From Bdellovibrionota bacterium FG-2 (GTDB lineage Bacteria; Bdellovibrionota; UBA1018), in NCBI GenBank assembly GCA_051382305.1, contig JBBCAV010000373.1, positions 1-4,812 on the forward strand: a DNA stretch of 4,812 nt. The letters are read 5' to 3'. This document shows positions 1 through 4,812 of this stretch, in pieces. Numbering within the stretch: position 1 is the first letter of the stretch; each line of letters starts with the position of its first letter. The position numbers were made by a program, and so were the translations under genes. Below the pieces are notes generated by a model. That model did not search any database. It was not told the DNA's origin and worked only from the letters and a program-made list of their open reading frames with translations.

Positions 1-439
1 AATCACACTTTTTTGCAGATGAATGAAAAGACGTCTGAATTACCGATTCAAGAAGCAAGGTGTGTTAGTGCGATGTGACTGACACCAAGTTCGAGCAAAC
101 TCCTGCCAAACAGCGTGAGCCCTAACAAGATATTCTTGAGGGGGGCACGATGGACAGCGGATTGTTTTCGCAGCCGGACATATATCGAAGGTTGGTGTGC
201 CTAAGTGGATCTTTGATGTTTAGGAAAAGGCTAACGAGGGGGGCGTTAAAAGTGTAACGCTATGCGAAAAGTTACCCCAGATGCCGCCTCTTTTTTGATT
301 TGAATTTGCCGGTTGTGAAACGGTGAGCACACCTGCTGATGCGTCTGAATCTAGTCGTTTCTAGATAAAAATATCTTGCACAACCTGCTCGCTCAATAGA
401 TCATCGTGAGGAATAAAGGATTTTGTTCTCACAACGACA

Positions 440-451: not shown

Positions 452-1564
452 ATGGATTTTCACGGTTACAGCTCGATGGATCTGCACTGCCTCTTTCGAA
501 TGGAGGAACGCTTCAAGTCGCAACAGGTTCTCGCTAACGCTGAGAGCCGAGGAGATATTCCAAAAGCAACACGCCTTGCTAGAGGAAAAAAAGAGATCCG
601 CAAATGGACAACCGAGCAGCTTCCCGAAATCGGAAAGCGGTTCGGATTTATTCCAAACAGAAAGATGCCACAGCAAGTCATTTCGGTTTTTACCCAAAAG
701 GGCGGAACTCTTAAGACAACACTTTCTCATGCATTCGCACGGGTATTAGCTCTTCACGGAATCCGCGTTGTGGTTGTTGGTCTCGACATTCAAGGGTCAA
801 TAACTAAGACCATGCTCCCTCCCCCGACAAACATGGACACGCTGGCTGATATTCTTGCGTACAATAAAGCGATCAAGGGTCTTTACCACTTCTTTAATCA
901 GCCCGAAAAATCAAGACGCATTGAAGACGTTATTCATCGGACCGACCTCCCTACTCTCGATATAATTCCAGAGACCCCACAGCTCAACGATCTCATCTTG
1001 TTAATTAACCAAAAGACGCTTCGAGAGTTCCGTTTCCGGGACGACTTACTACCGTACCTCAGCAACTATGATGTAGTCCTTTTTGACAACGGACCGAGCT
1101 GGAATTCTCTAGTTGAGAACTCGCTCGCTTGCTCAACTACACTGATCCAGCCCGTGGGCTGCGACGTGGGAACGTTTCAAGTACTTGACGGCAATATGGC
1201 ACAAGTCGAAGATTTTCGCGTAAAAGCAAAGATCACTTGGGATAGTCAACTCTTGGTCCCGACCCTTCGCGAAAACACGAAGCTCTCACAACAAATTTTA
1301 GGTGCCTATATTGCTCAATATCCAGCTCGCCAACTGCTCACAAATACCATTAGAAAGAGCGTAGCTGGCCAGGAAGCCCTCTATTTGAACCGTTCGGCTT
1401 TAGAACATGATCCGCGTTCAGACCTTTCAGATGATTACGCAAATGTAGTTCGAGAGATTTGGGACCGCATTTATTCAACTGAGGCGCAGAAGCACACAAC
1501 ACAGGAAGTGACCGCACCCAGCTCTTTGCGGCACCCATTTACTGAAAGTGTTGCGCAGGTTTAA
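452..1564 (+). CDS. parA: ParA/Soj-family partition ATPase with N-terminal extension (type Ia-like, probable HTH)
   Basis: 370 aa. Deviant Walker A VISVFTQKGGTLKTT (K83-T90), A' box VVVGLDIQGS, LDIIP motif and Walker B YDVVLFDNGPS. About 70 aa precede the ATPase fold (…LANAESRGDIPKATR…RKWTTEQL) and resemble the MerR-like/HTH extension of plasmid ParA/SopA/RepA proteins. Good RBS. Confidence 0.92.
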   Translation: MDFHGYSSMDLHCLFRMEERFKSQQVLANAESRGDIPKATRLARGKKEIRKWTTEQLPEIGKRFGFIPNRKMPQQVISVFTQKGGTLKTTLSHAFARVLALHGIRVVVVGLDIQGSITKTMLPPPTNMDTLADILAYNKAIKGLYHFFNQPEKSRRIEDVIHRTDLPTLDIIPETPQLNDLILLINQKTLREFRFRDDLLPYLSNYDVVLFDNGPSWNSLVENSLACSTTLIQPVGCDVGTFQVLDGNMAQVEDFRVKAKITWDSQLLVPTLRENTKLSQQILGAYIAQYPARQLLTNTIRKSVAGQEALYLNRSALEHDPRSDLSDDYANVVREIWDRIYSTEAQKHTTQEVTAPSSLRHPFTESVAQV

Positions 1565-1567
1565 TTT

Positions 1568-2956
1568 ATGGCACTGCAAGGAAACCCATTTTTAGGAAAG
1601 CTTAAGATCCCCGCCCCGGATCTAAGTCGCATTCCTGAAACACCATTTGAAAGCAAATCTTCCAACTTGGAAACCCCACTTCCCCTGATTGTTACCGCCC
1701 CCAAGGAAGAGCAGCATAAAGATGCCGGCACTAACCACATAGCCACCCCCAATAAACGGGTAGCAAACGGGTATCAAACAGATAGCAAAGAGGTAGCTAA
1801 ACGGGTAGCAAACGGGTATCAAACAGATAGCAAAGAGGTAGCTGCCTCAAGTATTCATCATCATCCTTTGTCGGAGGAAAAACTAAAACAGGTAGCACAA
1901 CGGGTAGCAGAACAGATAGCAAATGGAGAGCAAACGGGTAGCAAAGAGGTAGCTAGCGCAACTTTTGAGACCCTTGTTGGCAAGGAGCGCGGATTGCTCC
2001 TTTTTATCATCGAAGATTGCCAGCTTAACGGCGACTTAAAAACGGCACCACTTACTCTTGAACGCATCAGCGAAGCACTGGTTTGCAGCTCTAATCGCTC
2101 AAAAAACGTTATTCAGCGCCTTATAGAAAAGTCTTTTATCCATCGCGCAGAAGCCAAAACGGGCCGAGGTGGATGGACACGTTTTGGTGTCTCAAAAGAG
2201 ATCTTTCAAAAGGTCTTACTGAGAGAAACGGGTAGCAAAGGGGTAGCAAACGGGCATCAATCGGGTAGCAAAGAGGTAGCTAATCAGGTAGCACAACGGG
2301 TAGCAGGCGGCCCTAGTAGTAGTAGTGTTCTAATTAAAGAAGATTTTAAAACTACTACTACTGGCGAATCAGAACTTCTAGAAACCACAGGAACCCAGTT
2401 AACACCTGAGTGGCTGACTGTGGATTACTCCGATCTTTCTGAAATTGGATTTACTCAAACCCACCTAGTCCAAATTATCCGGCAAGGGAAACTCCAACCT
2501 GCTGAAGTCCAAGACTCTATTTATTACTTTGCGTTCGATCTTAAGCGGAATGAAAAGGGGAAAAACCTCAATGGACCCCCCATTAATTTTTTTATGGGGA
2601 TTCTTCGGAGAGGAGGACCGTATACACCGCCTGATAATTACGAGAGTTCGGCAGATGAAGCTCGCCGAAAGACCCGAGAGTTCAAAGAGCGCAAGGAGCG
2701 CGAGCGACAAGATGAAGATCAAAAATTGATGACTCTCGAATTTGCAGAGTGGAGAAGGGGGCTTTCAGCCGCCGAAATTATCGGTCTATTACCTGAACAC
2801 GCGCGGAAACCAGGACAAGTCCAAGAATCAGTATTAAAAATTCATTTTGAAGAAAACGTTTGGCCGGAGCGCGCGCAAGAGCTTTTGGGGATGACCAAGC
2901 TTGATCGCGACGAAGTTTCACGCCAGATCGATCAGTCACTAGGGGAAAAACTCTAA
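1568..2956 (+). CDS. Winged-helix DNA-binding protein, putative replication initiator with intragenic iterons
   Basis: 462-aa ORF starting 3 nt after the parA stop. aa ~132-219 read like a wHTH (LVGKERGLLLFII…LTLERISEALVCSSNRSKNVIQRLIEKSFIHRAEAKTGRGGWTRF). This is flanked by repeat-encoded segments, then an SSSS…KTTTT linker and a helical C-terminal region. The ORF itself is well supported; the initiator function is inferred from architecture (lambda O/RepC-like internal origin). Confidence 0.65.
   Translation: MALQGNPFLGKLKIPAPDLSRIPETPFESKSSNLETPLPLIVTAPKEEQHKDAGTNHIATPNKRVANGYQTDSKEVAKRVANGYQTDSKEVAASSIHHHPLSEEKLKQVAQRVAEQIANGEQTGSKEVASATFETLVGKERGLLLFIIEDCQLNGDLKTAPLTLERISEALVCSSNRSKNVIQRLIEKSFIHRAEAKTGRGGWTRFGVSKEIFQKVLLRETGSKGVANGHQSGSKEVANQVAQRVAGGPSSSSVLIKEDFKTTTTGESELLETTGTQLTPEWLTVDYSDLSEIGFTQTHLVQIIRQGKLQPAEVQDSIYYFAFDLKRNEKGKNLNGPPINFFMGILRRGGPYTPPDNYESSADEARRKTREFKERKERERQDEDQKLMTLEFAEWRRGLSAAEIIGLLPEHARKPGQVQESVLKIHFEENVWPERAQELLGMTKLDRDEVSRQIDQSLGEKL
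1754..1842 (+). repeat. 11-bp direct-repeat array A (8 units; perfect 45-bp tandem duplication)
   Basis: Units aaacgggtagc, aaacgggtatc, aaacagatagc, aaagaggtagc (1754-1797), a 1-nt T spacer, then the same four units (1799-1842). 1753-1797 is identical to 1798-1842. Confidence 0.97.
1886..1953 (+). repeat. 11-bp direct-repeat array B (6 units)
   Basis: aaacaggtagc 1886, (a) caacgggtagc 1898, (a) gaacagatagc 1910, aaatggagagc 1921, aaacgggtagc 1932, aaagaggtagc 1943. Confidence 0.95.
2226..2304 (+). repeat. 11-bp direct-repeat array C (7 units)
   Basis: aaacgggtagc 2226, aaaggggtagc 2237, aaacgggcatc 2248, aatcgggtagc 2259, aaagaggtagc 2270, (t) aatcaggtagc 2282, (a) caacgggtagc 2294. Confidence 0.95.
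2315..2362. repeat. 12-bp perfect inverted repeat around an AT-rich spacer (candidate DNA-unwinding element)
   Basis: AGTAGTAGTAGT (2315-2326) and ACTACTACTACT (2351-2362) are reverse complements. The 24-bp spacer has 20/24 A+T and the element starts 10 bp after array C. Confidence 0.85.
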
Positions 2957-3613: not shown

Positions 3614-4237
3614 ATGAATGTTGCGACCTATTCGCGCGTAAGCACAACAAAACGCGATCAGAAACCTGAAATTCAAGTCCAAGAGCTTCGGCGCTATTGC
3701 AAGGCGCGAGGGTTTAAAGTCGTTCATGAGATCACTGACCGTGCTCGCGGCGGAACCGATGACCGCCCAGGATTAAAACAACTTCTTCAACTCGTCCGCG
3801 CGCGGGAGGTGGACGCCGTTATAGTCGTAAAAATGGACCGCCTTTTTCGCTCCCTCAAACACTTGGTTAATACGCTTTCAGAATTCGAAGCCTTGGGGGT
3901 TAAGTTCATCGCGACACGCGACCAGGTAGACCTCACCACCCCCGCCGGCAGACTCTTCATGCAAATTTTGGGAAGCCTCGGAGAGTTTGAGCGCGAGCTA
4001 ATCCGTGAGCGGATTATGCTGGGCCTTGAGTATGCGAAAAGCCGCGGCAAAAAACTCGGGCGTCCTAAGAAAAATGATTACGCAGAAGTCCAAAAACTAA
4101 GAGAGCAGGGGAAGAGCTACCAGCAGATTGAAAAGGCGTTAAAGCTTTCTTCCGGCTCTGTTTGGCGCGCTATTCAGGCGACCCCCAAAAAACGGCTTTC
4201 TAAAAAGCCCCAAGACGCGCGATCAGCGAACCCGTAA
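3614..4237 (+). CDS. Small serine recombinase (resolvase/invertase family) with C-terminal HTH
   Basis: 207 aa. Catalytic YSRVST motif, RPGLKQLL, VVKMDRLFRS, E-helix FERELIRERIMLGL, LGRP linker and HTH (GKSYQQIEKALKLSSGSVWRAI). It starts 5 nt after the toxin stop. Confidence 0.95.
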   Translation: MNVATYSRVSTTKRDQKPEIQVQELRRYCKARGFKVVHEITDRARGGTDDRPGLKQLLQLVRAREVDAVIVVKMDRLFRSLKHLVNTLSEFEALGVKFIATRDQVDLTTPAGRLFMQILGSLGEFERELIRERIMLGLEYAKSRGKKLGRPKKNDYAEVQKLREQGKSYQQIEKALKLSSGSVWRAIQATPKKRLSKKPQDARSANP

Positions 4238-4272
4238 GGGGTAGGGGTACCCGCAAATCCTATCAAAAAAGC

Positions 4273-4315
4273 AAAACCCCAGATCATCGCTAGTCCCGAT
4301 GAATCTGGGGTTTTT
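4273..4315. terminator. Long hairpin, probable (bidirectional) intrinsic terminator; may alternatively be a recombinase binding site
   Basis: AAAACCCCAGAT-CATCG (4273-4289), 7-nt loop, CGATG-a-ATCTGGGGTTTT (4297-4314). This gives a 17-bp stem with one bulge, a T-run on the 3' side and an A-run on the 5' side, 35 nt after the resolvase stop. Confidence 0.55.
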
Positions 4316-4812
4316 AAAACTCAGAAGTGACCACCCCGAAATCAAATGTTTCCGGGGCGGGAAACGGTTTTGTACGAATCGTTGCTATGCCCATGTATAG
4401 GGTCGGGTCCGAAAAAGTTTCATTATGGTTGCGTTCGAGTGTTTCTTTTTAGGTTTCGTGTTGATCGTTTATCCTATCGGGAATGCAACAGCGGCTCGAT
4501 GATGGCAAGGTGAGCTGCAAGCCGTGGTGAAAAGGAAAGAGGGCGAAGCGATAAGATGGAAAGCGTGAAGTGAGAAGGGTTGCGAGATAAAGTGTGCGGA
4601 GATTTTGAAGAAGATGTTATGTTTTGAGTTTGGCTTTTGTTCTGTTTAGGTTTCTTGTTTTGGTTAAGGTTGTTTGAGCTTGTAGGTCGGGTAATTTATT
4701 GGGAGGCAAGCAGGGGATGGGATATCTCCCCACCCTAAAAGACATGGTTTGCTGCGCCCCCCATACCCCCTCTGACGGACCTGCGGCCCGTTGGAAAACC
4801 GGGAAAGGGTGA

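Follow-up and report, generated by a model that had tools for sequence, protein, structure and literature searches.

From our analysis of contig JBBCAV010000373.1 of Bdellovibrionota bacterium FG-2 (GenBank assembly GCA_051382305.1), the parA gene and the gene directly behind it, here called gene X, may together form a two-gene plasmid unit in which X is a replication initiator with the origin inside its own coding sequence and also replaces ParB. The window, by which we mean this whole stretch of 4,812 bp (contig C373), comes from a 433-contig assembly that is 85% complete, for a genome of 4.3 Mb. A preliminary description of the window had suggested a 'repAC without repB', in which one protein serves as both initiator and centromere-binding adaptor. 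This idea is the best-supported reading of the data, and we give it about even chances on the strength of sequence comparisons and structure models.

We infer that X binds iterons, fires an origin and contacts ParA in the following way. The winged helix-turn-helix (wHTH) domain of X would bind about 20 head-to-tail iterons within its own coding sequence, one unit per helical turn, and the duplex would open at a stretch composed of a G+C spacer, (TAG)4, an A+T-rich segment and (CTA)4, which abuts the last iteron array. The helical C-terminal domain of X would recruit host replication proteins to the opened stretch. The same X-DNA array would double as a centromere, and the N-terminal peptide of X, carried on a long disordered tether, would contact and stimulate the ParA encoded upstream, so that no ParB would be needed.

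Iteron arrays and an inverted repeat inside gene X

The 11-bp arrays mentioned in the preliminary description are real, as judged from Tandem Repeats Finder (TRF) and from shuffled sequences, but there are three of them and not two (A and B), two lying before the wHTH-coding part and one after it. TRF reported period-11 repeats at 1754-1842 (8.0 copies), 1886-1953 (6.0 copies) and 2226-2305 (7.1 copies). The consensus GGGTAGCAAAC, allowing up to three mismatches, has 29 matches in the window against 11.3 +/- 3.2 in shuffles, and none of 200 shuffles reached 29; 20 of the 29 matches are on the + strand, co-oriented, inside the three arrays and spaced in 11/12-bp steps. On its + strand the window contains 15 copies of the hexamer GGTAGC, a higher density than in any other of the 433 contigs of the assembly. 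Arrays A and B, with about 13 units, precede the wHTH-coding part and array C, with about 7 units, comes after it. Since three 11-nt units span 11 codons (33 nt), the unit comes to be read in all three frames (VANGYQTDSKE), and the unit that falls in the frame of consensus GGG TAG carries TAT (array A) or CAT (array C) instead. Selection on the protein cannot yield an 11-nt sub-period, which is indicative that the repeats are constrained as DNA and not as protein.

This design recurs in the family. Comparison of 50 homologues at the DNA level gave a unit of the form NNNNNNCAAAC, one half of it constant and the other variable, and the modal homologue gene has about 21 units, typically 14-16 before the wHTH part and 6-7 after it. 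Measured start to start, 283 nt separate the last listed unit before the wHTH part from the first one of array C in four of the homologues examined. In the family alignment, an 11-residue pattern, xxNxxQTxxKx, flanks the wHTH domain in most members, with the letters differing in each. Recognition helices are similar where the variable half is shared (CGGCAACAAAC/SGSVKTTLQRLE, CGAGGCCAAAC/YHAARKAIQRLE and GGGTAACAAAC/K-x-TAKT), a descriptive comparison that is uncorrected for shared ancestry.

The second element constrained at the DNA level is an inverted repeat behind array C. A nearly invariant protein motif, SSS...TTT, corresponds to (AGT)n...(ACT)n in the DNA. In 14 of the 18 genes examined, the serine codons of the motif are AGT in 55/64 cases (86%) against 125/598 elsewhere in the same genes, the threonine codons are ACT in 48/54 cases (89%) against 117/502 elsewhere, and the spacer between the two runs is 12-33 nt long with 71-100% A+T. 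Such biased use of AGT and ACT cannot arise from selection on the protein, and the motif is therefore a DNA element. The pattern (AGT)>=3, 9-33 nt, (ACT)>=2 was found in 52 of 66 distinct genes, always with a T ahead of the first AGT, and its four occurrences in the 4.3-Mb genome each lie within an X gene. The copy in the window begins 5 nt past the last iteron, behind a G+C-rich spacer, and is located in the stretch of gene X with the lowest GC content (33%); as single-stranded DNA it folds into a hairpin of -11.6 kcal/mol (z -2.84). T(AGT)4 holds four 5'-TAG-3' trinucleotides. The DnaA-trio consensus is given as 3'-GAT-5', with at least three trios required, in the portion of PMC8287927 available to us. 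For the DnaA box TTATCCACA, with up to one mismatch, the window has a single match, at 2419-2427 on the minus strand, and with 0.82 expected this is no more than chance; a DnaA-trio reading of the inverted repeat is therefore retained only in the bolder version of our proposal given below.

Pairing of gene X with parA

Both open reading frames (ORFs) of the pair were confirmed, with X beginning 3 nt after parA as first described (Table 1). The window ParA matches Pfam AAA_31 (5e-23, 82 bits, cut-off 27) and CbiA (4e-10, 40 bits, cut-off 25.4) as well as the PHROG for ParA-like partition proteins (7.6e-35). It has a deviant Walker A motif, KGGTLKTT, at residues 83-90, in agreement with the pattern KGGxxK[ST], of which K83, G84, G85, K88 and T90 are unchanged in 16/16 relatives, and it carries a conserved N-terminal extension of 74 aa. 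Its best NCBIfam match is the repABC RepA model (TIGR03453 equivalog), at 71.2 bits against a cut-off of 348.

That the gene in the parB position encodes neither a ParB nor a ribbon-helix-helix (RHH) protein was borne out: X has no Pfam family above cut-off and no ParB_N or RHH match in Pfam/NCBIfam at E<=0.1, and ParB_N is absent from 38/38 members of the X family at E<=1 (25 families listed). Matches of X to wHTH models, all sub-threshold, fall at residues 159-209. An AlphaFold2 (AF2) model built from a 38-row alignment has two confident domains, a wHTH domain and a helical C-terminal domain, while the iteron-encoded stretches, residues 24-130 and 224-274, have a predicted local distance difference test score (pLDDT) below 50. 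The best structural matches of the wHTH domain are of the MarR/ArsR type (Z 8-10); the fold search with the whole model returned generic wHTH regulators only, and a profile search of the PDB with the family alignment returned only wHTH regulators at E >= 0.02. DnaD_N weakly matches 12 of the 38 family members (best E 3e-4) and Phage_rep_O (PF04492) weakly matches 2 of them (best E 5e-4). No RepA_N, Rep3_N or Rep3_C match was found in X or in the 38 members, X has no RepC-family match, and PHROGs gave nothing relevant for X. The C-terminal domain has several residues invariant in the family alignment (F295, Q302, F321, F323, M343 and W395). A word-based search returned 206 relatives of X, none with a functional name, and a profile search returned 2263 representative clusters (50% identity) at E<=1e-3, with 1004 at E<=1e-30. 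Relatives occur in metagenome-assembled genomes of Oligoflexia, Bacteriovoracaceae and other Bdellovibrionota.

The coupling to ParA is conserved, as the preliminary description had asked of its proposal. Sixty-one distinct X genes could be tested, each encoding 250 aa or more and preceded by no fewer than 900 nt, and in 58 of them ParA is encoded directly upstream on the same strand (56 by phmmer, and L043 and L103 by Pfam AAA_31). In L020 and L025 an upstream Walker A motif was seen by eye only, and in L086 transposases stand upstream of X in place of ParA. The neighbourhood survey covered 287 ORFs, each 110 aa or longer and no more than 4 kb from X; 148 of their 172 cluster representatives were scanned, with 13 representatives from the contigs of the same genome set aside. 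At E<=1e-5 these 148 neighbour proteins include no ParB_N and no known Rep family. They comprise resolvases, integrases, relaxases, coupling proteins, Tra proteins, toxin-antitoxin genes, KfrA_N and transposases, and no third gene is conserved near X, the biggest neighbour cluster having 13 proteins. In one Gammaproteobacteria contig, X is directly followed by a 3329-aa ORF (L018:10993-20979) that contains a SecA DEAD-like domain.

A cognate ParB was thus looked for on the paralogous contigs, among the 148 neighbours and in four circular contigs, and none was found. Within the genome itself, ParB_N occurs only on C125 and C76 and on no paralogous cassette contig. The four circular contigs that carry the ParA-X pair (L046, 6063; L057, 7848; L069, 6772; L089, 4401) were recognized by terminal overlaps of 127 or 123 nt, giving circles of about 4.3-7.7 kb, and have no ParB_N and no other recognised initiator. 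The one of about 4.3 kb (L089) encodes ParA, X, three ORFs of 63-87 aa and nothing more; the one of about 5.9 kb (L046) additionally encodes a tyrosine recombinase, a Uma2 nuclease and a transposase fragment.

Further cassettes are present in the same assembly on C260, C188, C313, C275, C208 and C181 (loci L107-L110), and their units differ (GGTAACAAA, AACCGAACA, TTAGAACAA). Together with resolvase regions that are 93-95% identical in DNA among the window, C181, C260 and C313, these differing units suggest either that one host has several compatible sister plasmids or that the bin mixes strains. On C181, the gene for a 421-aa protein (L108:1880-3145 = C181 3879-5144) lies 3 nt behind that of a ParA 46% identical to the window ParA; the 421-aa protein is related to X only at residues 1-20 (MALPFNPFEG...). 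This protein matches Phage_rep_O (1.4e-6, 29.2 bits, cut-off 28.7) and the PHROG 'replication initiation O-like' (2.3e-6), and its gene has an 18-bp repeat seven times (protein SADGAK x7) ahead of its wHTH part. A recognisable initiator thus occupies the slot of X and shares its N-terminal peptide.

The N-terminus of X reads MALQGNPFLGKLKIPAPDLSRIPETPF, as quoted earlier, and its class follows the class of the ParA encoded upstream. Residues M1, A2, L3, N6, F8 and P17 are invariant in nine proteins paired with a window-type ParA, including the non-homologous Rep_O-type one. We compared 50 distinct ParA-X pairs, taking as window-type any ParA with phmmer E < 1e-20. X starts with [MV]A[LVI] in 20/20 pairs with a window-type ParA (one after start correction) and otherwise, with MPxIxDF..KK, MDLxxLLKKT or MAxLxxLLxSKK, in 30/30 pairs with a distant-class ParA, so that the two classes agree in 50/50 pairs. 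A quick IQ-TREE tree (LG+G4) of the X body, built from the wHTH and C-terminal domains, shows 11 changes of ParA class, at least seven of them forced by starred branches, and the peptide class switches with the ParA class in 7/7 independent pairs (sign test p 0.016).

The pair also extends to complete plasmids of cultured bacteria. PLSDB has 140 records with a distant homologue of X (about 27% identity) behind ParA, 114 of them from Piscirickettsia and 19 from Legionella. The sections of Ortiz-Severin et al. (2019) that we could consult state that neither a Rep gene nor iterons were found for pPSLF89-1 to -3. In P. salmonis CP039084 (L011:45638-47326), a second ParA is close to that of the window (4e-81), and 3 nt behind its gene begins one for a 210-aa protein, which has the N-terminal peptide, the repeats and the wHTH domain only, without a C-terminal domain, and adjoins IS30 copies. 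Because of these copies the 210-aa form may be a truncated gene, or else it may be a natural short form that acts as an adaptor only. The homologue on Legionella pLPL has only short TTAGATAnCA repeats, at about 1.9 copies apiece, and the Legionella branch thus falls outside the long-array design. These repeats lie upstream of parA and inside the X homologue (L008:12-121, 1707-1729); the sites are thus partly outside the gene in this distant branch.

Known systems and competing explanations

To place X among known systems, we compared it with in-gene origins on the one hand and with plasmid centromeres on the other. The lambda O gene has iterons and then an A+T-rich region inside the initiator gene. 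Lambda O and Phage_rep_O proteins are like X in having a wHTH N-domain and a C-terminal recruiting domain (the latter proposed for X), whereas X pairs with ParA and its 11-bp units number about 20. In RepA_N plasmids the centromere-binding protein is a separate one. Their initiators (pSK41 Rep, pAD1 RepA) share with X an N-terminal DnaD-related wHTH and in-gene sites that encode a flexible linker, and the latter trait was found in X, where arrays 1758-1957 and 2230-2308 fall in stretches of pLDDT <50. As described in the accessible portion of PMC5703833, the wHTH of pSK41 Rep is DnaD-like, its gene contains four Rep boxes in a central position, the linker that the origin encodes can be dispensed with, and the C-terminal domain is specific to the host. 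X differs in having a total of about 20 11-bp units, distributed over both sides of the wHTH part, instead of four Rep boxes, a (TAG)4/(CTA)4 inverted repeat, a position behind parA and an N-terminal peptide specific to the ParA class. In repABC plasmids, according to an excerpt of PMC3155836, oriV lies inside repC beside an A+T-rich stretch and repC is without iterons. The ParA-X pair would share with repABC the combination of ATPase and initiator in one operon with the origin within the initiator gene; it differs in that repB/ParB is absent and X is full of iterons, and its hosts are Bdellovibrionota and Gammaproteobacteria rather than the Alphaproteobacteria of repABC.

The likeness to centromeres is equally specific. 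The sites of ParR, TubR (itself a wHTH protein) and StbA are described in the part of 10.1101/2022.04.29.490116 at hand as head-to-tail, with an 11/12-bp cycle, in sets, on one helix face and bound cooperatively, and PMC2241845, in the extract available, is likewise cited for 11/12-bp head-to-tail centromere units. ParR (R1, pB171, pSK41), TubR (pBtoxis tubC) and StbA (R388 stbS) thus resemble X in unit size, phasing and grouping into sets, whereas these proteins are small and non-initiating, work with the motors ParM or TubZ or with none, and have their sites in promoters instead of in coding DNA. Classical iterons are of 17-22 bp in 3-7 copies, as stated in the portion seen of 10.64898/2026.09.14.751567. 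Rep_3 initiators combine WH1 and WH2 domains with 17-22-bp iterons outside the gene, while X has one wHTH domain and 11-bp units in the gene. The resemblance of X to in-gene origins and to centromeres alike is our main reason to favour a dual role.

Two narrower explanations each assign X half of this role. X could be an initiator with an in-gene origin and no partner of ParA, which would then use non-specific DNA and a small factor or would regulate X, as Soj acts on DnaA. Every origin-like feature of X fits this explanation, the 63-aa ORF of the smallest circle (L089) is RHH-like (weak matches, E 0.05-0.16) and could be a small centromere-binding protein, and complex prediction with a ParA dimer, ATP and X residues 1-60 gave no usable outcome (score 0.00 with each of two alignments), which in itself counts neither way. 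We consider it rather unlikely, since no third gene is conserved beside the pair and since the N-terminal peptide is conserved at the extreme end of a disordered region and tracks the ParA class even on a non-homologous initiator. Conversely, X could be a centromere-binding adaptor only, its wHTH domain replacing ParB on plasmids that use another origin. Sites of ParR, TubR and StbA are marked by just such sets of head-to-tail 11/12-bp units, X sits in the parB position, one locus (L103) has its own Rep_3 gene, and the second ParA of CP039084 is accompanied by the 210-aa form. Yet that form may be truncated, given the IS30 copies beside it, the 4.3- and 5.9-kb circles have no other recognised initiator, a Rep_O-type protein fills the same slot on C181, and a pure adaptor leaves the C-terminal domain and the (TAG)4/AT/(CTA)4 element unexplained; we rate this alternative as improbable to about the same degree. 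Least credible, and in our view very improbable, is the view that X simply regulates transcription or is of low complexity, with repeats that matter at the protein level and have no role as DNA. The similarity of its wHTH domain to MarR/ArsR regulators is in keeping with such a protein, but the three-frame 11-nt sub-period and the AGT/ACT bias cannot stem from selection on the protein, and X is strictly coupled to ParA in a context of mobile elements (relaxases, type IV coupling proteins, resolvases, toxin-antitoxin pairs).

The idea of a 'repAC without repB' comes out strengthened by the Rep_O-type protein in the X slot of C181, by circles without another recognised initiator and by the joint switching of peptide and ParA class, and qualified by L103. 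Several observations weigh against the dual role. On L103, a 26.8-kb contig, a Rep_3 initiator (L103:1094-2356; Rep3_N 1.7e-12, Rep3_C 1.1e-13) lies 3.2 kb upstream of ParA-X, so X need not be the sole initiator everywhere; either L103 combines two replicons or X does not act as the initiator there. Nine loci hold a weak Replic_Relax-like gene (E 0.003, 0.0005), among them L109:175-927 (C260), L057:83-970 and L051:3159-4154; two of the circles are concerned, L057 (E 0.003) and L069 (that copy without a match). In several loci (C260, L057) this gene is upstream of parA on the opposite strand. Window positions 1-132 match C260 128-258 at 98%, so the element of the window may carry the Replic_Relax-like gene beyond the contig end. 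The window contig ends in repeats common to C229, C260 and C181, and the gene content of the element is thus seen only as far as the contig reaches. The Legionella homologues are without long arrays and without the inverted repeat, and units of 11 bp in runs of 6-8 resemble centromeres more than classical iterons. Among solved structures the C-terminal domain has no relative (its top Z is 5.6, and the Foldseek match to a DnaD-domain protein, at E 3.4, is not significant), and protein-atlas scores of 0.81 for Bac_RepA_C and L_lactis_RepB_C are below trust level and serve as leads only. That P. salmonis CP039084 and Legionella pLPL carry the ParA-X pair with no Rep or ParB annotated speaks for the dual role, but the PLSDB gene tables are incomplete. 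The joint switching of peptide and ParA may reflect linkage alone, with recombination breaking at the first homologous stretch in X; the C181 case and the invariance of the peptide within a disordered region argue for a function of the peptide.

Conceivably, the dual role could go further, and we add a bolder version of it to which we attach slightly less credence than to either of the two narrower explanations. A single filament of X, polymerised on the roughly 20 helically phased sites of its gene, would then be the origin complex and at once the centromere complex on which ParA pulls. The last iteron, the G+C-rich spacer, the four TAG trinucleotides and the A+T-rich stretch, which come one after the other, would be to the plasmid what the basal unwinding system is to the chromosome, with mirrored trios letting host DnaA or X engage single strands both ways. 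The 5-6 variable bases of the unit would set the specificity of replication and segregation together, which would explain why at least five cassettes with different units are found in one assembly.

Other features of the window and biological meaning

The features of the window are collected in Table 1. All five genes are on the + strand (parA, gene X, DUF433, DUF5615/PIN_10 and a serine resolvase). A promoter scan of the window gave 2 sites against 4.5 expected, none of them upstream of parA.

Table 1. Genes and DNA elements of the 4,812-bp window.
Feature	Position	Strand	Basis
parA, ParA/Soj-type ATPase, 370 aa	452..1564	+	Pfam AAA_31, CbiA; PHROG
gene X, 462-aa wHTH protein, candidate initiator and ParA partner	1568..2956	+	AF2, family search
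N-terminal peptide of X, aa 1-20 (MALQGNPFLGKLKIPAPDLS), candidate ParA-contact peptide	1568..1627	+	conservation, co-switching with ParA class
iteron array A, 7 units of 11 bp, consensus GGGTAGCAAAC, head to tail	1758..1835	+	TRF, consensus scan
iteron array B, 6 units	1890..1957	+	TRF, consensus scan
winged-helix domain coding region (aa 131-222)	1958..2233	+	pLDDT about 85-97
iteron array C, 7 units	2230..2308	+	TRF, consensus scan
G+C-rich spacer before inverted repeat	2303-2313		
inverted repeat T(AGT)4 - 24 nt, 83% A+T - (ACT)4, candidate unwinding/hairpin element	2314..2362	.	codon bias, hairpin fold
helical C-terminal domain coding region (aa 275-462)	2390..2953	+	pLDDT 91 folded alone
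DUF433, 82 aa	3016-3264	+	Pfam 4.5e-24
DUF5615/PIN_10, 115 aa	3261-3608	+	Pfam 6.5e-23
serine resolvase	3614..4237	+	Pfam Resolvase 2.4e-42

The DUF433 and DUF5615/PIN_10 genes overlap by 4 nt and are probably a toxin-antitoxin pair carried as accessory cargo; the first part of the pair has a 95% identical copy on C313. The serine resolvase probably serves in multimer resolution. Behind it, positions 4240-4812 form a non-coding tail common to C181 (93%) and C260 (87-95%), with a perfect hairpin of 12-bp stem at 4273-4314. An Rfam scan gave one sub-threshold match, to rnk_pseudo, in the contig tail (28.5 bits against 55). This tail could hold the res site, a terminator or another cis element.

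In-gene origins and ParA-driven partition are each known, and the ParA-X combination is common and without a description in the literature we searched. That search, which had most subscription journals outside its scope, found no described ParB-less ParA-initiator cassette and no replication gene of these plasmids. If the proposed role of X is right, it would supply the missing replication gene of Piscirickettsia pPSLF89-1 to -3 and also that of Legionella pLPL, for which no initiator is annotated. The family of X is large and unnamed, with its 2263 clusters, and spans many plasmids of Bdellovibrionota and uncultured freshwater bacteria. The pair would represent a ParA system working without a partner of ParB, RHH or ParR type, and gene X would be a case of dense code overlap, with binding sites in three frames and a hairpin fixed by codon choice. 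In essence, if one protein and one array set the specificities of both replication and segregation, the rules of incompatibility and copy number would be readable from the 11-bp unit, and such rules would aid replicon typing and the design of vectors for difficult hosts.

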